A stretch of DNA of 64,000 bases from an uncultured Candidatus Poseidoniales archaeon (GCA_963968165.1 CAXAFE010000010.1:471-64470), one strand, 5' to 3'; positions 38,940-54,765 are shown, counted from the first letter of the stretch. Notes: generated from the sequence alone by a model not told the origin. Program-made: numbers and translations.

Positions 38940-41900
38940 ATGGTGGTGCGTACTATAGGGCGTCAACTCGAAAACAGTAAAAAATCATTATTAATTGTAA
39001 TGGTTTTAGTACTAGTTACTATATCTCCTTTGATTCACAACCAACACTCCACATCCGATATAAGGCCTGATAAAATAAATTGGGATACATCCGATAATTC
39101 CATTCAAATTTGGTCTGATGGAGGTCAAGTATGGCCTCAATTTGGAAGAACTGGAGATAGAATAGGAGATATTTTACCTCATAGCCCAGACGGCGGTGCT
39201 GGTTTTCAACATCCAGATGATTCATCAGAACTAATGTCAATAGTAAGTCCTGAAATAAATTGGGAATATGGAGATTATGAAATTGGAAATGATGCATTGG
39301 CGACTCCCATTGCTAATCTTGAAAATTCCATATCGAAAGATATTGAGGCGAATGAGAGATGTGGTGGTTCCTCGTTATTTATTATAATAATTCAAACTCA
39401 AGATGTCTCTGGTACTGATCACAGCATTCTAAAAATAATAGAAGGAGAAGATTCGGATTTAGCATGGCAAGTAGATTTGGGTGCTACTGAAACCATAAAA
39501 GCATCGCCAGTAGTTTTGGACATTGATGGAGACAACAAGCAAGAAATAATAATTGCATATGATGCTGGAGGATCAGTATTCGTTGAAGCATGGTCTCCAA
39601 GATTAACGTGTACGGTTACTGGATGGGCTCCCGGAGGTAATTCTGCTGAACTTTTATGGACTTGGAGTGATGATAATCTAATGATAAGTAGTGAAGAAGG
39701 CCCATATTCAAGTAATTTATTGGGAGGGCATAAGCCTACTACACAACCATTGTTGGCCGATTTAGATTTAGATGGAGATGCAGAACTCATACTGACATTA
39801 ATTGATGAAATAACTGATGAACCAGTAGTTCTTGCCCTTCCATTACCTACTAGCGGAGTTCCCAATCCAATATGGCAAGTAAGTTTGGATAAAGGTAGCC
39901 ACCCTTCGGATCCGTCATTTGCATTAACTGATGATGATACGGGTTACATATTACTTACGACAATTGAGGCTAATAGCGGAGGAATGTGGGTATGGAAAAT
40001 AGAATCAGATACGGGAGATTCAAGTTGGAGTGGAGGATTGAATCTAAATAATATCGATGGAGATAATGATGTACCTCACATAAGATTACCGGGTCCGATA
40101 ATTGCAAATTTAGATTCGGATGATGTCCCTGAAATGATAATAACAATACCAACCGATGCCGATGGTTCGGGAAGTGCCGATGGTGCAGAATATATAGGGA
40201 TGGAGATTAGTGATGGAGAAGAAATTTGGAGTTTTAATGCAGTAAATGGATATGCAGATGCCCCTCCAACAGTGATTGATACAGATAATGATGATATTTA
40301 TGATAGAGTATGTTGGGTAACATGGTGGCAAACAACTACTGCTAGACATGGAGAATTGGGATGTCATGATGTAAGTGGAATAATACCCAATCAAATTTGG
40401 AACAGAGATTTAGAGCAAAGTAGTGGCACTCCGAACGATGAAATAGCTGTTAGTGCAGCGACTTGGATGGATATAGATGGGGAAGGAGAGCAAGAAATAA
40501 TCGTTGCTTTTGGACGAACCTTGTGGGCCTTTGATGGCGAGGAAGGAACTAGTTCTGCAATTAATACTGAATGGTCGGATGAAATAGCGTTAAGCCATAG
40601 GACCTGGTCAACACCTTCACTAGCAGATATAGATGGAGACGCGACTCTTGATGTAGTAATTGGCAGTATGGTCATATCGAATGGACTGGCAGATATTAGG
40701 CCATTAATCGATGAAAGGAGTATAGAATTTAATCCTAATGCCCCTGATCCAGGAGAAAAGGTAACAATAACCGCTTTCTTTGAAAATGCAGGGACAAAGA
40801 TTACTGAGGAAGGCATAGATGCTATACTATATGCAGATGGAGAAGAAATTGGAAGGTATCGATCAGGGAATATGCAACCAATAGATCCAACTGGCCCCGG
40901 ATCTTTCTCTAGTTTTGATGTTGAATGGGAAGGAGAATTGGGAGACCATATATTTGAACTTCAATTAGACCCATATAGAAATATTTCACAATCGCGTTAT
41001 GACAACGATAATCAATCTAGAACGCTTTCAATCATACCAACATATAACGCCTCATTTGAAATTCAAACTAATCCAATTAGAATTAATCCAGGAGAGAGCG
41101 GAATTGCCATACCTACAATCAGATCTACGGGAAGGCTCGCGGGGATCTGGAGTATCGATATCGACGCCAGTAACCTTCCTCAGGGCTGGACATGGGAGAC
41201 GGTATCAGAAAATGAATTAACTAATATAGAAATAGAGTCAGGAAATATATGGAAGCCGGAAATAGTAATCAATGCCCCCCTTGAGGCCTTAGGTTCAGAT
41301 TCTGGATATTTGATATTGAAACTATCACTCGACCAAGACGCAAATATAAGTGTTGAAGCAACCATACCTATCGAGGCCAATAGAACAAGAGGTCTATCTC
41401 TGAGGGGCCCAGATGGAACGTCATTTAGTGAAGGGCATGGGCTACTAGGAGAATTTGCATCCGCCTGGCTAATGATAGAAAACGTAGGAAATGCTGTAGA
41501 AAATCAAATAACTATTTCCTGGGATAATACTGCATGGGGATCAGAATTAAAATTATTTAATTCGGCAAATATTGAACAATCGGCATTAATACTTGACCCT
41601 GGCGAATCTAAAGAAATGTCAGCAAGATTGATGGTGCCAAATGATGCTGCTTACGAAGAAGTGGTAACAACTCCTTTGATGATGTGTGTCGGAAGTGGAG
41701 AAGAGGAAATATGTCAAACTATATTTTTAGATTTTATTGCATCAAGAATAGTTATTGAAAATAATCATTTGAGATCAGTACCTTCAAATGAATTGATGTG
41801 GACTCTGAGTGCAGATATTCCAAATGATAGGGATGCAATTAACTGGTCCTTAGTAGATATAGGGATGGCAATAAGTGGTTGGAATTGGTATTCAGACGAG

Positions 41901-44627
41901 AATATAAGCATTATTGATGGAATCATATCTATTCAAGGCAACCCTGGGACTAGAGTAAATGGAAATATATACTTAGACTTACCTGAAGACTCTCATCCTA
42001 TGTATCATAGATTCTCTAAAACAGGCAATATTCCTGGATTATCTATGGATTTTTCAATAGAGATTTTACAAATTTATAGAGCGTCTTTGAGCATAATTTC
42101 CCCTGTAGAAATGCCAAGTTATATCGAAATAGGAGAGGAAAAAATAGTCATACTTAGGCTTGAAAATCAAGGAAATGGAGAAGATTCATTTCAACTATCC
42201 TACAAACTAATTCTGAATGAAAATATCTCTACAGATCCCGGGATAATGGTGACTTTCTCGAATAACCCACTAAGTCTTGAAGCAGGGAGTCTAAGATCGA
42301 TTCCTGTAAGTATAATTCTTCCCCCTTCTACTCCGGCGAAGGTAGATATAAATATAGAAATAATAATGAAATCATCCGGGAATATTTCAATTATTGATTC
42401 TAAAAATCTAATAATACAGGCAAAGCAGAATCATGTTTGGGAAATAGATGCACAAATCAATCAAGAACTTATTAATGGTAATGAATATACTATAATTCCT
42501 GGTGAAAGAATACAAATTGACATAAATGCTAAAAATTTAGGTAACATGTTAGATGATATAGAACTAATAAGTTCAACAAATATACAACTAGTAAATGGAG
42601 ATCAATCAATTGGGTGGAGTGTTGGCGGAGATTTTAGATACGGAGTTTTAGTAAATGAATCAATTGAATTAAAATTAAATGTCACAATACCTAAAACTGC
42701 GTTAGTTGGCTCTACGATGAATGTTGAAACAATTATAATGGCTAATACAGATGAAATAGAGAGGTTTTCATTTAATGTAGGTGTCGAACATATTTCAGGA
42801 TGGTCAATTTTAGCAAGAGATGCTGATTTAGAAATTGAAAAAAATGGTTCCGGAGTAGATTTAACAATAATACAATTAGGAAATTTGGAGACTAGACCAT
42901 ATATTTCAGTTTTGATCGTAGGAGAAGATGGTTGGATTGTTGAAGTACCAGCTGAAATATCACCAATAATTCCTGGAGGAGAAATTTCATTAATGCTGAA
43001 TATTACGCCCCCCTCATCAGCCCAATATGGAAAATCAGTAGAATTAAATGTTAGAGTTCGTGAAGGAGACTCTAGTTCAATTACTGAAATAACACTACCA
43101 ATCAGAGTGGCTGCAGTGTATAATTTTACTATGACAGAATATGATGATTGGATAGTATCTCCTTCTGGAGGTTATCCACTTGTTTCATTGAATAATTTGG
43201 GAAATTCACCTACAACTATATCACTTCAGATTTTGAGTCTACCCCAAAATTGGACAGTATTAGGTCCCGATAAAGTCGTTCTTGCCACTAATGAAGAAGT
43301 TGGTTTACCATTAAAATTAGTTCCATCTCAATACTGGGACGGAAGCGTAAGGACAATTAGAATATTGGCTAATGATAACAAAGGCAATCAACAAGAAATA
43401 ATCATTGATACTAAATTCAATGAATATTCCTGGGGCAGTTCACCTTTTATTAATTCGTATACTAACGATGATGCATTGGTCCATATTATGAATATTGATG
43501 AATTGGAAGACACAGTAATTGATGACGAGGGAAATATTTTGAAATGGATTGAACAGGGTTGGATTTTGACAACGGAATTAGAAGGTTTTATTTATGGAAA
43601 TATAACAATAAACCAGATTAATAAATTACCTTTTATTGTAAAATCTTTTGACATAAATAAAAGGGCAATTTCGTGTGAAATCTCAGGAGATTTTGGAGAT
43701 GTTCATTCTTCATGCACTATAGCACCAAATAATGTTAGTTTTTCATATTCGATCCTCTTAACAGATGACAAAGGAGATATTATTGACTATGGATATGGAT
43801 TTTTGAATAATATTGATACAAATATGATGATAAATATGAGTTCTGAAAGTTGGGAGCCTGAGCCTGGAATGAGATATCTAAACCTAAGAATTTTGGACTC
43901 CAAAGGGAATCAAATAGTTGAATATGAAAAGAATTTTGAAATTAGAAAAAGTAATTGGAATATAGGCTTGAATTCAGTTGATTTAGTAGGAACAGGTGAG
44001 GATCAAATGATAGAAATTACAGCAGAGAGATACGGTCATAGTCAATTATTGGATGCTGATTGTACCATAGAATTAACACAGGGAGATTTGAAAATACGTC
44101 AAAAAATTGATATGAGTACAAGAGTAATACTCACTCCGAAACCAAAGTTTGAAAGGCCTCTAGAGATTCAAGATGGTTCTGAGATTACTGTTATAATAGG
44201 CTGCTTATTTCCTTGGGATTTAGATGCTAATCAAGCAGATAATGAGATAAGAAAGGTTCTAACAGGAGGTGCTATTGATAATGAAAGAACAATTGTTACT
44301 TCCTTAAGTATGATTACCGCATTTGCAATAATCGCATTATCTGCGACTATATCGTGGATATTGAAAAATCGAAGAGAGATGAGAGAATTTGAGGAAATGG
44401 CTGAAAATGCTATAAAAAATAAATTAAGATCCGAAAGTAAAATAAAAGAAATTGATAAAATAAAATCAGAAGCCCCAAAAATAGAGGAATTATCAACTTC
44501 TGATTCTGAAGATGATAACATTGCACTGCTAGAAGTAAAGAAAAATAATGATGATGTTGAAAATAATAGGGATGAGCACTTAGATGAATTCGAGCGTAGG
44601 TTGAAGCGTATTCGCCGTGACGCCTGA
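38940..44627 (+). CDS. Large surface protein: FG-GAP/PQQ-like beta-propeller, CARDB and COG1470-like Ig repeats, C-terminal TM anchor
   Basis: Signal/anchor helix, WPQFG, repeated DxDGDxxxE, VTITAFFENAG..LDP..NDN, repeated (V/L/I)xNxGN modules. Confidence 0.82.
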   Translation: MVVRTIGRQLENSKKSLLIVMVLVLVTISPLIHNQHSTSDIRPDKINWDTSDNSIQIWSDGGQVWPQFGRTGDRIGDILPHSPDGGAGFQHPDDSSELMSIVSPEINWEYGDYEIGNDALATPIANLENSISKDIEANERCGGSSLFIIIIQTQDVSGTDHSILKIIEGEDSDLAWQVDLGATETIKASPVVLDIDGDNKQEIIIAYDAGGSVFVEAWSPRLTCTVTGWAPGGNSAELLWTWSDDNLMISSEEGPYSSNLLGGHKPTTQPLLADLDLDGDAELILTLIDEITDEPVVLALPLPTSGVPNPIWQVSLDKGSHPSDPSFALTDDDTGYILLTTIEANSGGMWVWKIESDTGDSSWSGGLNLNNIDGDNDVPHIRLPGPIIANLDSDDVPEMIITIPTDADGSGSADGAEYIGMEISDGEEIWSFNAVNGYADAPPTVIDTDNDDIYDRVCWVTWWQTTTARHGELGCHDVSGIIPNQIWNRDLEQSSGTPNDEIAVSAATWMDIDGEGEQEIIVAFGRTLWAFDGEEGTSSAINTEWSDEIALSHRTWSTPSLADIDGDATLDVVIGSMVISNGLADIRPLIDERSIEFNPNAPDPGEKVTITAFFENAGTKITEEGIDAILYADGEEIGRYRSGNMQPIDPTGPGSFSSFDVEWEGELGDHIFELQLDPYRNISQSRYDNDNQSRTLSIIPTYNASFEIQTNPIRINPGESGIAIPTIRSTGRLAGIWSIDIDASNLPQGWTWETVSENELTNIEIESGNIWKPEIVINAPLEALGSDSGYLILKLSLDQDANISVEATIPIEANRTRGLSLRGPDGTSFSEGHGLLGEFASAWLMIENVGNAVENQITISWDNTAWGSELKLFNSANIEQSALILDPGESKEMSARLMVPNDAAYEEVVTTPLMMCVGSGEEEICQTIFLDFIASRIVIENNHLRSVPSNELMWTLSADIPNDRDAINWSLVDIGMAISGWNWYSDENISIIDGIISIQGNPGTRVNGNIYLDLPEDSHPMYHRFSKTGNIPGLSMDFSIEILQIYRASLSIISPVEMPSYIEIGEEKIVILRLENQGNGEDSFQLSYKLILNENISTDPGIMVTFSNNPLSLEAGSLRSIPVSIILPPSTPAKVDINIEIIMKSSGNISIIDSKNLIIQAKQNHVWEIDAQINQELINGNEYTIIPGERIQIDINAKNLGNMLDDIELISSTNIQLVNGDQSIGWSVGGDFRYGVLVNESIELKLNVTIPKTALVGSTMNVETIIMANTDEIERFSFNVGVEHISGWSILARDADLEIEKNGSGVDLTIIQLGNLETRPYISVLIVGEDGWIVEVPAEISPIIPGGEISLMLNITPPSSAQYGKSVELNVRVREGDSSSITEITLPIRVAAVYNFTMTEYDDWIVSPSGGYPLVSLNNLGNSPTTISLQILSLPQNWTVLGPDKVVLATNEEVGLPLKLVPSQYWDGSVRTIRILANDNKGNQQEIIIDTKFNEYSWGSSPFINSYTNDDALVHIMNIDELEDTVIDDEGNILKWIEQGWILTTELEGFIYGNITINQINKLPFIVKSFDINKRAISCEISGDFGDVHSSCTIAPNNVSFSYSILLTDDKGDIIDYGYGFLNNIDTNMMINMSSESWEPEPGMRYLNLRILDSKGNQIVEYEKNFEIRKSNWNIGLNSVDLVGTGEDQMIEITAERYGHSQLLDADCTIELTQGDLKIRQKIDMSTRVILTPKPKFERPLEIQDGSEITVIIGCLFPWDLDANQADNEIRKVLTGGAIDNERTIVTSLSMITAFAIIALSATISWILKNRREMREFEEMAENAIKNKLRSESKIKEIDKIKSEAPKIEELSTSDSEDDNIALLEVKKNNDDVENNRDEHLDEFERRLKRIRRDA

Positions 44628-45272: not shown

Positions 45273-46184
45273 CTAAAAGGTTAAACCGGTTAATCTCTCA
45301 TACATATTTGAATATAAGTTGGCCGTTTCTGAGATGATATTAACAGGCAATTCAGGAATTGGTGGTTCCTCATTACCATTCTTTCTAGCTTCATAAAGAA
45401 CATCATGATGACCGGTGGCTAAGTAATGCTCTCTAACAAATTCTTTTGATAATTGAATAATTTCTCCTTCACCATATGATTTTGCATCCCACCATCTATC
45501 TTCATCTAAAGTCCCAAAAGAATCAACTAATACTGGCACCCTATTCTTTCCTAGCGCAAATTCCTTTTTCCCATCAACATGTATTAATCCCCTTGATGCG
45601 GCTTCAGTATTTATGATATCATCAATTTTTAGAACTATCTCCATTATATTATCAAATTCAGCATCAGTTAGGTTTGAGATAAATAATGCTTCCTTCCTAT
45701 CTAAAAGGCGATCAAAAGCTTCAAACTTTGTAGAAACCTCAAGATATGGCTTTGGTAGTTTTATACCTTCGTGTAATTTGGTACCAGGCTCAAAACCAAA
45801 CTCTTCTGCAGGGGCATCTCCTCTCTCGTACCTCCTCCATCCCGAACCAGCTAAATAGTGCCTACATATTACTTCTAGTGGGATAAATACATTTTCGGCG
45901 TCTCTTGGAATTGCCCCTGGTTCTCTAATTACATTGAATTTACGAGCAAGAATCCTATCTGGAGCGTTGACTTCTATGACATGGGTTTCACAAATGCCAG
46001 CATCTTCGACCATACTAAACCAATGCGCAGAGGTACGGTTTAGTGATTCGCCCTTTCTTGGTATTAAACTAGGAATGATTTGATCGAATACGCTAATCTG
46101 ATCAGTATATCTAAATTCAATTATATCTGGATCATCAGTACTCCACACTTGCTTTACTTTTCCTTGGTATATTAACTCGCCCAT
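45273..46184 (-). CDS. purC: SAICAR synthase
   Basis: YQGKVK, TDQISVFD, IPLEVICRHYLAGS, VDGKKEF, DEDRWW and SKEFVR motifs. Confidence 0.95.
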   Translation of the reverse strand: MGELIYQGKVKQVWSTDDPDIIEFRYTDQISVFDQIIPSLIPRKGESLNRTSAHWFSMVEDAGICETHVIEVNAPDRILARKFNVIREPGAIPRDAENVFIPLEVICRHYLAGSGWRRYERGDAPAEEFGFEPGTKLHEGIKLPKPYLEVSTKFEAFDRLLDRKEALFISNLTDAEFDNIMEIVLKIDDIINTEAASRGLIHVDGKKEFALGKNRVPVLVDSFGTLDEDRWWDAKSYGEGEIIQLSKEFVREHYLATGHHDVLYEARKNGNEEPPIPELPVNIISETANLYSNMYERLTGLTF

Positions 46185-46254: not shown

Positions 46255-48654
46255 ATGCAAGGGTTCTATATCCTTACTCCTAATCGGAATTTAGTGAATG
46301 AAATGTATAGGCAGGTCTTTGATTCGAAAGAATCGAAAAAAAAGTACATTAAACGTATTATATTAGTATTTTCATTAACATTATTGTTATTATGTTCGGG
46401 AGTTGTGCAGGCACAGAGTAGTAAGAAAAGTGGTTGGGAAATTATTGAATCTAATACTGAAGTTGATATTACTAATATCATATCTACGATAGGTGAGAAC
46501 GTTTGGTCATTTGGAAATAATGGTCTGATGATGAAAAGTATCGACAAAGGAAAAAACTGGAATATTCTTGACAATGTGACTAATGAAGACATAATGTCCT
46601 CAGATTACTCAAATGGGATATTAGTTTTTGTTGGTAAAAATGGAACTGTTTTTCAGAAAGGTACTAATGATTTATGGGAAAATATATCTATCATAGATTC
46701 TTCTATGGATTTGAAAGGAGTTGCAATATCATCGGAGGATTTGATATATGTAATAGGTGATAAAAATTCATTGTGGAAGTATGATAATAAAATTTGGGAA
46801 AATATTTCAAATGATAATCTAATGAATTATAACTCAATATCATTTATTGATAGTAATGATGGCCTTAATGGAGTTATAGTAGGAGATAGGGGATTGATCC
46901 TAACTACATTAGATAGCGGATATAATTGGAATTTAATAGAGCCCCCAGAATCAATAAAGAATTCAAATATCATTTCTGTCGAATTATATAGCGAGTCCAA
47001 GGCTTATGCGACAACTGAAGATGGATACATCTTGGTATCTAGAAATTTAGACACGAGCATAGGATTTGAATGGGATTTAGTATTAGATGAGAGGTTACCT
47101 ATTGGAGCCGCTAGAATTGAAAATATAGATGTAATAAATTCAATAAAAATTATAGTAACAGGTACAAACAATTATGTTGCAACCAGTAAAGATGGTGGCA
47201 ATACATTTGAAAGGCATAACTTGTCATTATTGCCTTCAGAGGGAGAGTTGGTTATTCGTGATATAGAAATGATAGATGGTTTTTGTGGCATAATTACTGG
47301 TAATTATGGATTAATTTTGATTACAGCAGATAACGAATATGGATGCACAGAAGGCCTAGATCAGTCAGTTGGTTTTGAAATAGAAGAATTCAATAAATTT
47401 GGCACATTTGTAGAAAAATATGCTCCATGGATGTTGGATGGATTAATAGCAACTATGAAAATAGTAGGATTTGGAATTTTATTTGGATTTATTATTGGCA
47501 TATTTTTAGCAATGTGTAAAACTGCCCCAACCTCTCTGAAGGATATGATTGAAAGTCATTTGGAAAATGTTATTTTTATCTCATGGATTATGATTCCATT
47601 TTGTATTTTGATTTCAAGATACTATGCTAGTCTGAAGATCGGGTTAGTATCATTTTTAATATTATTAATAGCTTTGAAAATATTAAAGATCTATTTAAAG
47701 AATAATAAATTAAAACAATTGTCTGATCAGGAAGGTTTCTTTGGAATAATAATTCCCCAATCTAAAAGATTATTTTGGACGCGTATATTAGGACTCTCTT
47801 TGATGATTGGAATACCCGATACTGGAATTATCAGAATAAGAGGAGGTATTTTAATGATAATAGAATCTATAGATTCATTTATGTCATTAGGATTAAATGG
47901 ATTTGAATATGTTTATTCACCTGTGGGTGATCCTATTGCTTTTTCATACTTGATAATGGGTTTTGGTTTGTTAATACCCGGAATATTGTTATCAACAACT
48001 AATGGTAAATATTCAGATATATTTATTCCATTCTTAAATAATAAAAAAATAAAGTTTAAACCTTGGGAAATAAGACCTTTGAATTCTCTTGCTACTTTGT
48101 ATACTGATATGTTTCGAAATACACCTTTGGTAGTACAATTTCTATTTTTGCACTTTGGAATTGAAATTGGAAAAAGATTAGAGCAATCTGGAAGTGACAT
48201 GTTTCAAGGTATACCATATTTAGCCGATATTTTTAGTGACAGGATTTACCTGAGTGCAATATGTGCTCTTGCGATGAATTCAGGAGCATATCAATGCGAA
48301 ACATTGAGAGGCGCTATCGCTGCAATTCCTTCTGGACAAATGGAAGCGGGAAGAAGTATTGGATTAACTTATTTACAAACAATGCGCTTGATAATATTAC
48401 CTCAATCGATAAGAATATGCATTCCTCCTCTCGGTAATGAAATGGTAAATTTAGTTCTAAACTCATCATTGGCCATGGTAATAGGCTACACTGAATTAAC
48501 TAGGCAAGGAAAATTAATCAATGCAATAACATTCCAAATTACTTGGACTTGGGGGATGGTAATGATTTCATATTTTATAGTAACATGGGCATTAGCAATG
48601 GTACTTAGAAGGATCGAGGTAAAAACACGTATCCCAGGATTGGGGATTGTATAG
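46255..48654 (+). CDS. Polar amino-acid ABC permease fused to an N-terminal Ycf48/BNR-like beta-propeller
   Basis: Blades such as VGDRGLILTTLDSGYNW, SIDKGKNW and SKDGGNTF; permease motifs FRNTPLVVQ, AYQCETLRGAI, GQMEAGRSIGL, IILPQ and NSSL. Confidence 0.88.
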   Translation: MQGFYILTPNRNLVNEMYRQVFDSKESKKKYIKRIILVFSLTLLLLCSGVVQAQSSKKSGWEIIESNTEVDITNIISTIGENVWSFGNNGLMMKSIDKGKNWNILDNVTNEDIMSSDYSNGILVFVGKNGTVFQKGTNDLWENISIIDSSMDLKGVAISSEDLIYVIGDKNSLWKYDNKIWENISNDNLMNYNSISFIDSNDGLNGVIVGDRGLILTTLDSGYNWNLIEPPESIKNSNIISVELYSESKAYATTEDGYILVSRNLDTSIGFEWDLVLDERLPIGAARIENIDVINSIKIIVTGTNNYVATSKDGGNTFERHNLSLLPSEGELVIRDIEMIDGFCGIITGNYGLILITADNEYGCTEGLDQSVGFEIEEFNKFGTFVEKYAPWMLDGLIATMKIVGFGILFGFIIGIFLAMCKTAPTSLKDMIESHLENVIFISWIMIPFCILISRYYASLKIGLVSFLILLIALKILKIYLKNNKLKQLSDQEGFFGIIIPQSKRLFWTRILGLSLMIGIPDTGIIRIRGGILMIIESIDSFMSLGLNGFEYVYSPVGDPIAFSYLIMGFGLLIPGILLSTTNGKYSDIFIPFLNNKKIKFKPWEIRPLNSLATLYTDMFRNTPLVVQFLFLHFGIEIGKRLEQSGSDMFQGIPYLADIFSDRIYLSAICALAMNSGAYQCETLRGAIAAIPSGQMEAGRSIGLTYLQTMRLIILPQSIRICIPPLGNEMVNLVLNSSLAMVIGYTELTRQGKLINAITFQITWTWGMVMISYFIVTWALAMVLRRIEVKTRIPGLGIV

Positions 48655-48662
48655 GTGGTCAA

Positions 48663-49397
48663 ATGTCTGAAGAAGTTTTAATTGTTGAGAATATGCATAA
48701 AGTATATCCAGGTGGAGTACATGCCGTAAAGGGGATTTCATTCAAGGTGAACGAGGGAGAATCGGTTGCAATAATTGGATCATCCGGTAGTGGTAAATCA
48801 ACTGTATTGAGATGTATCAATAGGTTGATTGAGCCAACAGAGGGGATAATTAAATTGAAAGGAGAGCAAATAAACACTCCCGTAGCAGATGTAAATGAGA
48901 TTAGATCGAGAATAGGGATGGTTTTTCAGTCATTTGAATTATTTGCCCACTTAAAAGTATTACAAAATATTACATTGGGCCTGATTCATGTAAGGGGCAT
49001 GAGTACTGAAGAAGCAGAAAAAATAGCTCTAGAAGTATTAGAAAGAGTAGAAATGTTAGATAGGAAAGATGCTTATCCCGGAAATCTTTCAGGAGGACAA
49101 AAACAGAGAGTAGCGATTGCAAGAGCACTGGCGATGAAACCTGAAATATTACTATTTGATGAACCTACCAGCGCCCTGGACCCGGAATTAATAGGATCTG
49201 TGCTAGAAAATATTCGATCGTTGGCAAATGAAGGAATGACAATGATAATTGTAACTCATGAAATAGGATTTGCGAGAGATGTTGCTAATAGGATAATATA
49301 TATGGATGAGGGAATTATTGCTGAAGTAGGAAGTTCAGAAATTATAGATAACCCTCAAACAGAGAGAATGAAAAAATTTCTTTCAACTTGGGACTAA
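48663..49397 (+). CDS. Polar amino-acid ABC transporter ATP-binding protein (GlnQ-like)
   Basis: GSSGSGKS, LSGGQKQRVAIARAL, DEPTSALDPE and VTHE motifs. Confidence 0.95.
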   Translation: MSEEVLIVENMHKVYPGGVHAVKGISFKVNEGESVAIIGSSGSGKSTVLRCINRLIEPTEGIIKLKGEQINTPVADVNEIRSRIGMVFQSFELFAHLKVLQNITLGLIHVRGMSTEEAEKIALEVLERVEMLDRKDAYPGNLSGGQKQRVAIARALAMKPEILLFDEPTSALDPELIGSVLENIRSLANEGMTMIIVTHEIGFARDVANRIIYMDEGIIAEVGSSEIIDNPQTERMKKFLSTWD

Positions 49398-51851: not shown

Positions 51852-51996
51852 TATAGCCCTCGCCCAGCACCAAATGTCATGAACTTTATCTTTTTCATAA
51901 TTGAGATAGGACTTGAGTTTACGATAGTTTTCATCTACATTCAACTGTAATATTTATCCATGTAAACGTTCCGGATTGACCGAAGGGTGTAAAAAA

Positions 51997-54765
51997 ATGA
52001 GTGAACAATTAAGTGTAAAAAATATAGCGATTGGTTGTATTGTGATTGGATTATTGCTTCCAATGATTAATTTAACAGTTATTTCAGGAATGGCTACAGA
52101 TGGAGTAATTTCAGGAGTTGGAGATAAGATGGCTGATGACAGAGATGAATTAACAGATTGGGAAGATCCAGATTGGCTTGTGACTACTAGTGAAAGATCT
52201 TATTTTGCAAATTCTATAACTAATGTTGATGAATTAGAGGCAGGAGATATTCCTGAACTTGAGAAAATGGGACCATTTATTTATACAGTTACAACCACCA
52301 AAGACATAATAAATTTTGATGAAATAAATGGAGTAATTACTTATTCGGAATATGATAGTTTTGATTGGTGTTCAGATTGTACTTGGACTGATGATCAAGG
52401 AGTTGAACACCAGTCAATAAATGGGACAACCGACGTGACTCAAGTCAATATTTTATACAATACTCAGCTTATAGCAGGTCTCGCCACAGGAATAGACTAT
52501 GGAGGTATTTTTGCAAAAGCAGGATTTGCAAATAATATGATTAATTTTGAATTACAAAATAAGGCCCCAAGTATTTGGTCTGCTAATGATATTTCACTTG
52601 CCGTTGCTGGACTTGGAGGCATTGCAGTATTAGATGAATCATATGCTAGCTGGAATGCTTCTTCGATGGCAGGAATGATGACTCCAAATTTCACTTCGTC
52701 GGCTTCTTTCATTATGGAAGAAGCAGTGTCAGATACTGGTGTATGTATAGCACTAACATGTGAAATTGGTCCGGTACTAGTTGCGGGAATGGGGGCGCCG
52801 AGTGCTGAAGTGACTGCTAATAGATCTGTATTATATGGATACTCTGATGTTATAGAACCAGAATTGACTCATATAGACTGGGCAGTATATGCTCTCGCAG
52901 CTACTACTTTCAGTAACCATGGTGGCGGTGCTAATTTGTCTGAAGTTGATAATTTGAAAGAAAGATTGGCGGCAGTAACAGAATCAACATTAGGTAGTCC
53001 CGTAAATATTAATAATCCGGCTGCACTAGATTACATCTTATTTGGTATTAATGAAGATACAGGTAATGCAGCAGGTCTTTTGACTGAAACTGATTTCTTT
53101 GGAATCCCCTTAAATGGAGTTGCTTTGTTCCTTTTAGGTGCATCTGGAAATGCATTTGATGCAATGGTAGAATATGGAGTAGGATTAGGAGATTTGCTCA
53201 GCTTGGTAGACTATTCGGGAAGATGGTTAGCATATGATAATCCTTTGATTGGTACTCCAAGTGATTTTTCAATGATATTAGTTGGCGACAGTGGTACATT
53301 AAATGGTGATCAATGGTGGTTGGAATCATTTGGAGGTAATGAGCCGATTGCTAATGGTTATTTGAGCATAGGATTGAATAGAGCAGATTTAGAAGGTACG
53401 ATAGACATGTCCGCAGATAAAGCAAATGAAATCTTATATACTGGTGAATATTCTTTGACAGGTAGTTTCGCGACTGAATTTATGTACGGAGAACTTAGTG
53501 GATTATCTCTTCCGAGATCTTCAACAGGGCCAGTTGCAGGAGGAGTTCAAGCAGTTTGGGATAATGCGTACGTCGCATCATTATATGAAATATCAGAACC
53601 TGAAGCTAATGCACTAAGAAGCTGGGTAATTGATTTTATGTTCCCGTCAGTAGTTCCAGCATTACTAAATTTCCAATATGGTGCTACTCCATATACCACA
53701 CAACCCATGAATAATTGGCTATATGGTTGGGACGATGCAGTTCTTGCAGGATTGGGAAGATTTAGTTGGGTAACATTAGAAACTAATGAGACGTATTTTG
53801 GTTCAGTTTCTGATGATAATCCCAATGGAATTTCAACAGGAGATTATACAGTATACCAAATGAGTACAGGAACAGGGGCGAATAATGCTGATAACATGGA
53901 ACATGGATTGCTTAGAGGATACATTAATTCAGATGGGAATGGATTATGTGACTTTAAATTCGATGATTTGGGAGAAGTAGAGTATCTTGTTGCTTGTGAA
54001 GCAAATGAAACCTATGGCATGACAGAATATTTACCTTGGAGAGCCCCTCATAATGAAGCGGCTACCTATGGCTTATTATCAGATAATGTTGGAAATACTA
54101 ACACTGTTTGGGCAGGAACTATTGGAGGAATCGCTGATGCAGAAGAATCTTTTAATGTCAATTTAGTAGGTTATGCAATTGCAGAAAGTGTAGTTGGTGA
54201 TGAAGTAACGTACAAAAATATTCCAATGGTTGAACATAGCGTCATTCTTGATCCTGCTGAAAATCAAATTCAAGGCAAATTGATTGGAAGTGGTACATTT
54301 GTAGATGCAATGCCAGGGGCTTTACCTGTTTATTTTGCATCTGAAGTAGATATAAAAGTTGAACCAATAACTAATGTAGCAATGTATGGAAAATCAACAT
54401 CTTCATTTGTGTTCGACTACAGAGGTCCAGGGAGTATCGATCCTGACTTTAATGCAGAATACATGAAAACAGTATTTGAAATCCATACTTTTAGTGAAAT
54501 ATCCGACGAAGATGCTGAATCATTCAAGGGGACAGTATTAGATCACACAGGACCACTTTTCTGGAAGAATGTAGTAACAGGAAAAGATGCACGTGAGGAT
54601 ACCGAACTTGAAGCACTAACTACGGTAGCATATGTCTCGGCTGCAATGTATGTTGGGGGACTAGCATTAGTAATGTTTGGAGCCGTAAGAATTGGAAAGT
54701 TAGCTGGCAATGATGAAACAGCATACCAGGTTTCCGATTCGAACGCATCAGATATTGAGGAATAA
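51997..54765 (+). CDS. CD36/scavenger-receptor-class-B-like membrane protein with large insertion
   Basis: TM helices at both termini; colinear blocks [53 protein letters not shown] and [11 protein letters not shown]. ATG at 51997. Confidence 0.75.
   Translation: [922 protein letters not shown]

Follow-up and report, generated by a model that had tools for sequence, protein, structure and literature searches.

A 64,000-nucleotide stretch of DNA from an uncultured Candidatus Poseidoniales archaeon (GCA_963968165.1, CAXAFE010000010.1:471-64470; hereafter the window) contains a gene in which a seven-bladed Ycf48-like beta-propeller is fused to the N-terminal side of an ATP-binding cassette (ABC) permease of the polar-amino-acid type, followed directly by a gene for a GlnQ-like ATPase. 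The fusion spans six Marine Group IIb (MGIIb) genera and part of Marine Group III (MGIII), and in a number of these relatives a gene for a separate family-3 (SBP_bac_3) binding protein lies beside it. We describe here the architecture and fold of the protein, its conservation and distribution, and its linkage to binding-protein genes in relatives. The reading that we favour, with slightly better than even confidence, is that of an importer with a separate family-3 binding protein in which the propeller is a non-catalytic accessory docking ectodomain. No description of a propeller-permease fusion was found in the open-access literature of PubMed Central and bioRxiv.

The fusion gene is a single uninterrupted open reading frame (ORF) of 799 residues. 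Its parts and the ATPase gene are, in window coordinates:

46255..48654, plus strand: fusion gene, propeller and polar-amino-acid ABC permease (PSII_BNR and BPD_transp_1 on one ORF)
46255..46419, plus strand: N-terminal tail and signal-like hydrophobic helix, residues 1-55 (hydropathy, basic tail)
46420..47340, plus strand: seven-bladed Ycf48-like beta-propeller, residues 56-362 (AlphaFold2, Foldseek, PDB sequence matches, Asp-boxes)
47341..47535, plus strand: short tether, amphipathic lead-in GFEIEEFNKFGTF and core membrane helix 1, residues 363-427 (AlphaFold2 helix, conservation)
47536..48066, plus strand: lineage-variable insertion with about four predicted extra membrane helices, residues 428-604 (hydropathy, AlphaFold2)
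48067..48651, plus strand: core permease helices 2-5 and EAA loop, residues 605-799 (BPD_transp_1, GlnP model, conservation)
48343..48402, plus strand: EAA loop EAGRSIGLTYLQTMRLIILP, residues 697-716 (motif match)
48663..49397, plus strand: GlnQ-like ABC ATPase, 244 residues (ABC_tran 134.8 bits, GlnQ 285.5 bits)

In the fusion protein, Pfam PSII_BNR matched residues 178-292 (39.4 bits against a cut-off of 27) and BPD_transp_1 residues 608-784 (58.2 bits against a gathering score of 26.4); the same scan gave no match to PF00497 (SBP_bac_3) in this protein. The top NCBIfam permease matches were all of polar-amino-acid types (GlnP, cystine, EhuC, HisM and ArtM/Q). GlnP scored 115.2 bits, below its equivalog cut-off of 303, the cystine model 114.3 bits, below its cut-off of 300, and EhuC 104 bits, likewise under its equivalog cut-off; TIGR01726, the HEQRo three-transmembrane domain, was just missed (42.0 bits, cut-off 42.2). 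The permease models align only from residue 605 on, with GlnP model positions 51-218 on the core permease, and their N-terminal portion is split by the insertion. At the other end of the protein, a basic tail (8 Lys and Arg within residues 1-34) precedes the signal-like helix (residues 35-53, hydropathy 2.38), after which the sequence VQA/QS would be the likely cleavage site. An earlier, preliminary description of this DNA had recognised the signal-like helix, the propeller and the permease with its EAA loop, and the ORF call, Pfam, motif matches and AlphaFold2 bear this out. One 204-nucleotide contig from an RNA library matches 48352-48553 without differences; of the sampled words, a fraction of only 0.05 was present in this run, and the contig could stem from carried-over DNA.

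The N-terminal domain is a Ycf48-like propeller and not a periplasmic-binding fold, because both the Foldseek and the PDB sequence matches are to Ycf48. An AlphaFold2 model of the fusion protein, built on 29 family sequences (mean predicted local distance difference test score (pLDDT) 71, predicted template-modelling score (pTM) 0.46), has seven four-stranded blades between residues 61 and 364, with pLDDT 80-91 across residues 61-260. When the propeller was compared with the PDB by Foldseek, the ten best matches were all Ycf48 (E 1.1e-14 to 5.8e-13, target-normalised template-modelling scores 0.71-0.76), and generic seven-bladed propellers were listed below these. Ycf48 also gave the only PDB sequence matches (E about 3e-4), with an identity of about 16% in the structural alignments. 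The ESM Atlas matches, which are leads only, were all below 0.9 and fell in Ycf48-type clusters.

Strict Asp-boxes (S/T-x-D/N-x-G-x-x-W/F/Y) are present at residues 95, 218 and 311, and two degenerate ones occur besides. The propeller has a net charge of -25 in the window protein and of -14 to -43 across the 29 family sequences, with 2-9 arginines each. Conserved basic columns in these sequences are limited to 135, 249, 298 and 312, column 249 being the sole conserved R/K column. Neither a conserved catalytic set or arginine triad nor a conserved polar pocket was found in the propeller in the 29-sequence alignment, the conserved columns being mostly Gly, Trp, Asp-box and strand residues.

The fusion is not confined to this assembly. 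Both domains were present in 15 of the 20 protein clusters returned for the whole-protein query, and a propeller-only query retrieved both in 9 of the 17 more distant representatives scanned. The propeller part was found in 84 of 301 sampled Poseidoniia genomes. In the window's own family the fusion is carried by 73 of 113 genomes and is essentially all-or-none per genus: 3/4 in g1 (the genus of the window), 15/15 in g4, 17/18 in g6, 9/9 in g7, 18/18 in g9 and 11/13 in g13, and none in seven other genera. In the sister family within this order, 141 genomes yielded no case, and in family f4 there were 10 of 43. We take f4 as MGIII, since the binding protein found at its loci is shared with an MGIII metagenome-assembled genome (MAG). 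Among species-representative genomes, 15 of 80 loci matched beyond the permease core or were cut by contig ends, and all of these came from Poseidoniales/Thalassarchaeaceae MAGs or one MGIII MAG; the other 65 were bacterial permeases in which the match started only at residue 547 or later. In a 301-genome sample drawn from the phylum just two weak propeller matches lay outside Poseidoniia, one of them (G436) to PSII_BNR alone, without a permease, and the other (G384) in a frame of 1308 residues.

The window genome is a draft of 48 contigs, and a chimeric assembly, or two genes read as one, would give an apparent fusion. We rejected this explanation, to which we attach practically no probability, on the basis of the recurrence across clusters, distant representatives and genomes, the open frames and an independent contig. 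The fusion frames measure 613-1018 residues and all but two are free of internal stops, among the matches listed, and a gapless metagenome contig of 2039 nucleotides from an independent DNA run covers 46491-48529, across both junctions.

The preliminary description had noted the lack of a solute-binding protein gene in the window, and this extends to the whole contig of the window, where no SBP_bac_3 match was found. In relatives, such a gene was found next to the fusion. All 10 MGIII genomes with the fusion (10/10) have an SBP_bac_3 gene of about 320 residues directly upstream in divergent orientation, and an adjoining divergent gene was also seen in the MGIIb loci L013, L015 and L016, and in locus L025. 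With the L013 binding protein as query and only full-length matches counted, 16 of the 121 MGIIb genomes sampled encode the dedicated binding protein (9 of g7, 4 of g4 and 3 of g13), and its gene adjoins the fusion in 15/15 of those with known fusion coordinates. A full-length match was not found in g1 (0/12, that is 11 genomes and the window's own), g6 or g9. The fusion and SBP_bac_3 share genera, and both were missing in 141/141 genomes of the sister family.

Because MGIII and part of MGIIb keep the adjoining binding-protein gene, the propeller appears to have arisen as an add-on to a binding-protein-dependent importer, and the linked gene appears to have been lost later in several lineages, the genus of the window included. 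This bears on the idea, put forward in the preliminary description, that the propeller takes the place of a binding domain. With regard to position the idea stands, since the propeller precedes the permease and is joined to it by a short tether. As the origin of the design, however, a stand-in is not supported, given the upstream family-3 genes in MGIII and MGIIb and the lack of a conserved pocket-like or catalytic set in the propeller.

Examples of the dedicated binding-protein genes are:

L025:785-1750, minus strand: binding-protein gene (SBP_bac_3, permuted)
L100:1458-2423, minus strand: binding-protein gene (SBP_bac_3, permuted)
L013:4941-5915, minus strand: binding-protein gene (SBP_bac_3, permuted)

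The best solved matches of the encoded protein are AncQR, ArtJ and GlnH, all of the glutamine/arginine type. It is circularly permuted, with residues 175-288 corresponding to AncQR 9-116 and residues 30-141 to AncQR 117-232, and at its C-terminus an acidic linker plus a hydrophobic membrane helix takes the place of an N-terminal lipid anchor. Environmental homologues amounted to 775 clusters at E <= 0.001. A predicted complex of an MGIII propeller (residues 40-356 of the L100 fusion) with the neighbouring binding protein (residues 27-292) scored 0.07 against a mark of 0.32, without controls, and speaks neither for nor against binding.

The propeller was intact in 32/32 genes fetched from four genera. 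Within genera, its identity was 58.3% and 60.8% where the dedicated binding-protein gene was missing and 61.9% where it was present, and in g4 the values were 79.8% without and 77.9% with the gene; as the groups differ in depth, this comparison is a weak one. The intact genes, and the similar identity with or without the dedicated gene, indicate that the propeller is under constraint. Across the family, mean identity was 38.8% for the propeller, 35.5% for the insertion, which is the least conserved part of the fusion protein, and 74.4% for the permease core.

The propeller is joined to core helix 1 by a tether of about 15 residues, which is poorly defined in the AlphaFold2 model. The lead-in GFEIEEFNKFGTF before this helix is conserved and amphipathic. 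AlphaFold2 predicts a helix at residues 382-423, and the first core helix, at residues 403-421, comes right after the propeller. Around it G396, I403, G411, F412, G415, K422 and T423 are invariant in the 29 sequences. Between core helices 1 and 2 sits the insertion of about 177 residues, which had gone unmentioned in the preliminary description. It has hydropathy peaks at residues 436-454, 462-480 and 561-579 and AlphaFold2 helices at 428-456, 460-484, 502-518 and 560-580. Its length varies, from absent or less than 45 residues in MGIII forms up to about 290 residues elsewhere; in the shortest relative (P0071, 589 residues) helix 1 continues straight into the YTDxFRNTPL segment, without an insertion.

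The EAA loop EAGRSIGLTYLQTMRLIILP fits the pattern EAA-x3-G-x9-I-x-LP, and its columns are invariant or nearly so in the 29 sequences. After the last membrane helix all family members have the tail K-T/S-R/K-I-P-G-L-G (window 48628-48651, residues 792-799), in which I793, P794, G795, L796 and G797 (IPGLG) are invariant in the same sequences. This tail is predicted to be cytoplasmic and might reach the ATPase.

The GlnQ-like ATPase gene was found where the preliminary description had placed it, with 8 nucleotides between the stop codon of the fusion and its own ATG; its GlnQ score is under the equivalog cut-off of 379 bits. An ORF of 234-276 residues follows the fusion gene directly in 11/11 related loci, and this ORF matched ABC_tran in all 7 of the loci scanned (7/7). 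One permease gene and one ATPase ORF at these loci fit a permease homodimer.

The preliminary description had suggested a search for an orphan SBP_bac_3 gene elsewhere in the genome, and this gave two carriers, on contigs C21 and C30 only. The one on C30 is an orphan AapJ-like lipoprotein of 537 residues. It plausibly serves a second polar-amino-acid ABC system, AapQ/AapM/AapP-like, which is encoded at C3:810-5442 (locus L110) with no binding-protein gene beside it. The permeases of this C3 system are inflated to 765 and 529 residues by extra hydrophobic stretches, an echo of the insertion in the propeller-permease.

The other carrier is a family-3 domain on a LivK-like lipoprotein of about 1070 residues, the gene of which is in two pieces:

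C21:3-860, minus strand: lipoprotein gene, first piece (locus L001; family-3 and Peripla_BP_6 for the gene as a whole)
C26:5744-8113, minus strand: lipoprotein gene, second piece (locus L091)

The C21 gene runs off its contig, and the two contigs share an overlap of 55 nucleotides, at the start of C21 and the end of C26. The reading frame goes on in C26 with two Peripla_BP_6 domains, and behind it lie genes for a fused LivHM-like permease of 1239 residues and for two ATPases. An intact orthologue from the same genus (L092:1089-4304, minus strand, 1071 residues) has SBP_bac_3 and two Peripla_BP_6 domains, and across the MGIIb genera that have the fusion there are frames of 1030-1100 residues with this family-3 match too. 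The C21 domain is a circularly permuted SBP_bac_3 domain, 41% identical to the dedicated protein of MGIII and 19-25% to those of MGIIb. Since a family-3 domain is not expected to serve a Liv-type permease, we infer that this domain is the likeliest partner of the propeller-permease, with the C30 AapJ-like lipoprotein as the alternative. One tethered protein with binding domains of two classes might serve two ABC importers.

In the reading that we favour, the fusion and ATPase genes would specify a polar-amino-acid ABC importer of type I, most likely composed of two propeller-permeases and two GlnQ-like ATPases. The signal-like helix would place the propeller outside the cell, with the tether of about 15 residues between it and the first membrane helix, and the five-helix core would couple to the ATPase through its EAA loop; in the lineage of the window about four extra helices are predicted in the cytoplasmic loop after helix 1. 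The substrate, probably a free polar L-amino acid, would be delivered by a separate family-3 binding protein and not by the propeller. In relatives this would be the permuted product of the neighbouring gene, held on the membrane by its C-terminal helix; in the window's genus, where the dedicated gene appears to be gone, it would most likely be the family-3 domain of the C21/C26 lipoprotein. The propeller would act as a strongly acidic, non-catalytic platform that holds the membrane-tethered binding protein over the permease dimer. We prefer this docking or holding role because of the analogy with Ycf48, with an RND (resistance-nodulation-division)-linked Ycf48-like protein and with the P2 loop of MalF. 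It corresponds to the second option of the preliminary description, in which the propeller would be a scaffold to dock a binding protein encoded at a distance.

Several observations weigh against it. The model gives the propeller no defined orientation with respect to the membrane portion (pLDDT below 50 at residues 372-377, pTM 0.46). A conserved propeller face was not found: with Gly and Trp columns excluded, loop conservation was 0.45-0.49 on both faces, and apart from R/K249 and K298 there is no evident interface patch. Sequence divergence in the propeller is two to five times as fast as in the permease core. The propeller is retained at similar identity in g1, g6 and g9, without a full-length match to the dedicated protein, so that its role cannot hinge on this one protein. 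As to the partner, the join of C21 and C26 rests on the 55-nucleotide end overlap, backed by the intact orthologue of 1071 residues, and the candidate heads a branched-chain-type (Liv) operon and may serve that system only.

The propeller could instead act on its own transporter. As a built-in module comparable to Ycf48, seated on the outside of the permease dimer, it would serve in assembly, stabilisation or gating, and might for example aid dimer assembly in a wall-less envelope or cap an idle docking site; we regard this as unlikely though not negligible. The closest fold, Ycf48, is described as binding the outer (lumenal) surface of D1 during assembly (PMC10403576), and both the short tether and the retention of the propeller whether or not a dedicated binding-protein gene is present would suit such a role. 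The six-arginine patch of Ycf48 is missing, however, from propellers that have 2-9 arginines, one R/K column (249) and a net charge of -14 to -43, and fast divergence would be odd for a domain that must fit a highly conserved core. Still further from our expectation, for the lineages in which no dedicated gene was found, is that the propeller itself captures the substrate and delivers it to the permease or to a binding protein, the main idea of the preliminary description, which we hold to be improbable. It lies N-terminal of the permease on a short tether, and the fused binding domains of GlnPQ-type importers sit in that position too. In g1 (11 genomes and the window's own), g6 and g9, which yielded no full-length dedicated protein, the fusion and ATPase are intact and conserved, and there is a described precedent in AztD, a propeller from which the ligand passes to the ABC binding protein AztC (PMC6689063). 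Yet the propeller predates the loss of the binding protein, both being present in MGIII (10/10) and part of MGIIb, and SBP_bac_3 domains occur elsewhere in all fusion-bearing genera. Nor was a conserved polar pocket found in the propeller. Binding proteins signal to type I importers by an open-to-closed motion, to which a rigid propeller has no evident counterpart. We would put only a small chance on the tethered propeller of g1, g6 and g9 being a working receptor, which captures substrate or recruits a lipoprotein-borne binding domain shared with a second, unrelated importer; if true, this would be a type I ABC importer delivering its substrate through a beta-propeller.

That the propeller is an enzyme or enzyme scaffold that frees substrate near the permease, such as a sialidase-like glycosidase or a dock for surface peptidases, we consider highly improbable. 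Asp-box propellers do include sialidases and other glycosidases, three strict Asp-boxes are present here, and there is a weak NCBIfam glycosylhydrolase match (24.7 bits against a cut-off of 175). Against these stand the lack of an arginine triad, with only the four conserved basic columns named above, the best structural and sequence matches, which are to the non-enzymatic Ycf48, and the neighbourhood domain scan of related loci, which found no conserved peptidase gene near the fusion.

Upstream of the fusion gene the window has three genes in conserved synteny:

38940-44627, plus strand: giant FG-GAP/CARDB-type surface protein, 1895 residues
44617-45270, plus strand: protein of roughly 207-217 residues without a family match
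45273-46184, minus strand: purC

On the 3' side, genes for a Glu/Leu/Phe/Val dehydrogenase and an HD-domain protein are found in many relatives, and at the same place the window has two proteins without a family match. Further along, at window 51976-54765 (plus strand), the N-terminal part of a predicted membrane or surface protein of 929 residues matches the CD36 family (37 bits against 26.5, residues 61-134), and a syntenic protein of 896 residues in locus L012 carries the same match. CD36-like proteins are best known as lipid scavenger receptors of eukaryotes.

Few archaea of the surface ocean are as abundant as those of Marine Groups II and III, and the uptake of amino acids is a central part of the heterotrophic life presumed for them. 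In Thalassarchaeaceae, amino-acid binding-protein transcripts are reported among the highest (PMC9723583). For Marine Groups II and III, a conserved and unstudied ectodomain on the permease makes the textbook scheme of binding protein, permease and ATPase incomplete. For the study of ABC transporters, this ectodomain is also a natural example of a type I importer with a fold other than that of a binding protein tethered to its docking face, and relatives have, alongside it, a binding protein with circular permutation and a C-terminal anchor.

The system was compared with known ones. With the type I importers of the polar amino acid transporter family (PAAT, TC 3.A.1.3), such as GlnHPQ, HisJQMP2 and Art(QN)2-ArtJ, it has in common the BPD_transp_1 core, the EAA loop and the adjoining GlnQ-like ATPase, and in a number of relatives the gene of a family-3 binding protein, for which AncQR, ArtJ and GlnH are the best solved matches, lies next to it. 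These core features place it in the superfamily of GlnPQ/Art(QN)2-type importers, and it would operate in their manner. Unlike PAAT importers, it has a propeller ectodomain, a helix insertion of about 177 residues and an invariant IPGLG tail, its permease and ATPase miss all NCBIfam equivalog cut-offs, and the binding protein of its relatives is permuted and anchored by a C-terminal helix. In GlnPQ of Lactococcus lactis (PDB entry 6h30) and some other importers, binding domains are fused to the N-terminus of the permease. The window system resembles it in having an extracytoplasmic domain after a signal sequence, a short tether to helix 1, and one permease and one ATPase gene, but the fused domain is a Ycf48-like propeller instead of SBP_bac_3. 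Asp-box sialidase-like glycosidases have an arginine triad and a nucleophile pair as conserved catalytic residues. Asp-box repeats are common to them and the propeller (three strict and two degenerate here), but three conserved arginines were not found in the window family, in which the conserved polar columns are mostly Asp-box or strand positions.

In the maltose importer MalFGK2-E, the binding protein is clasped by P2, a loop of about 180 residues within MalF. Like the propeller, P2 is an extra extracytoplasmic domain on the permease of an ABC importer; it differs in being an internal loop of another fold, and contact with the binding protein has been shown for P2, while for the propeller it is inferred. 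To our knowledge, Thalassarchaeaceae/Poseidoniales are without photosystem II. Ycf48/HCF136, an assembly factor of photosystem II in oxygenic phototrophs, and the window propeller share the seven blades and a PSII_BNR match above cut-off, and Ycf48 gives the best structural matches. A patch of six conserved arginines in Ycf48 is described as binding D1 at the outer face of the membrane protein (PMC10403576); this patch is missing in the window family, the propeller scores 55.5 bits against the equivalog cut-off of 326 bits (NF010237), and it is fused to a transporter in a heterotrophic archaeon. By these criteria it is not a Ycf48 orthologue. In Proteobacteria, Ycf48-like BNR proteins of COG4447 are described as encoded with RND-type exporters, DUF1302 and DUF1329, and one such protein as cofit with an RND-type exporter (bioRxiv 10.1101/072470). 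Here too a Ycf48-like propeller is tied functionally to a membrane transporter in a non-photosynthetic organism, but as a separate protein, with an exporter of another superfamily, and in bacteria. The propeller-permease differs from GlnPQ/Art(QN)2-type importers by four features: the propeller, the helix insertion, the IPGLG tail, and the permuted and anchored binding protein of its relatives.

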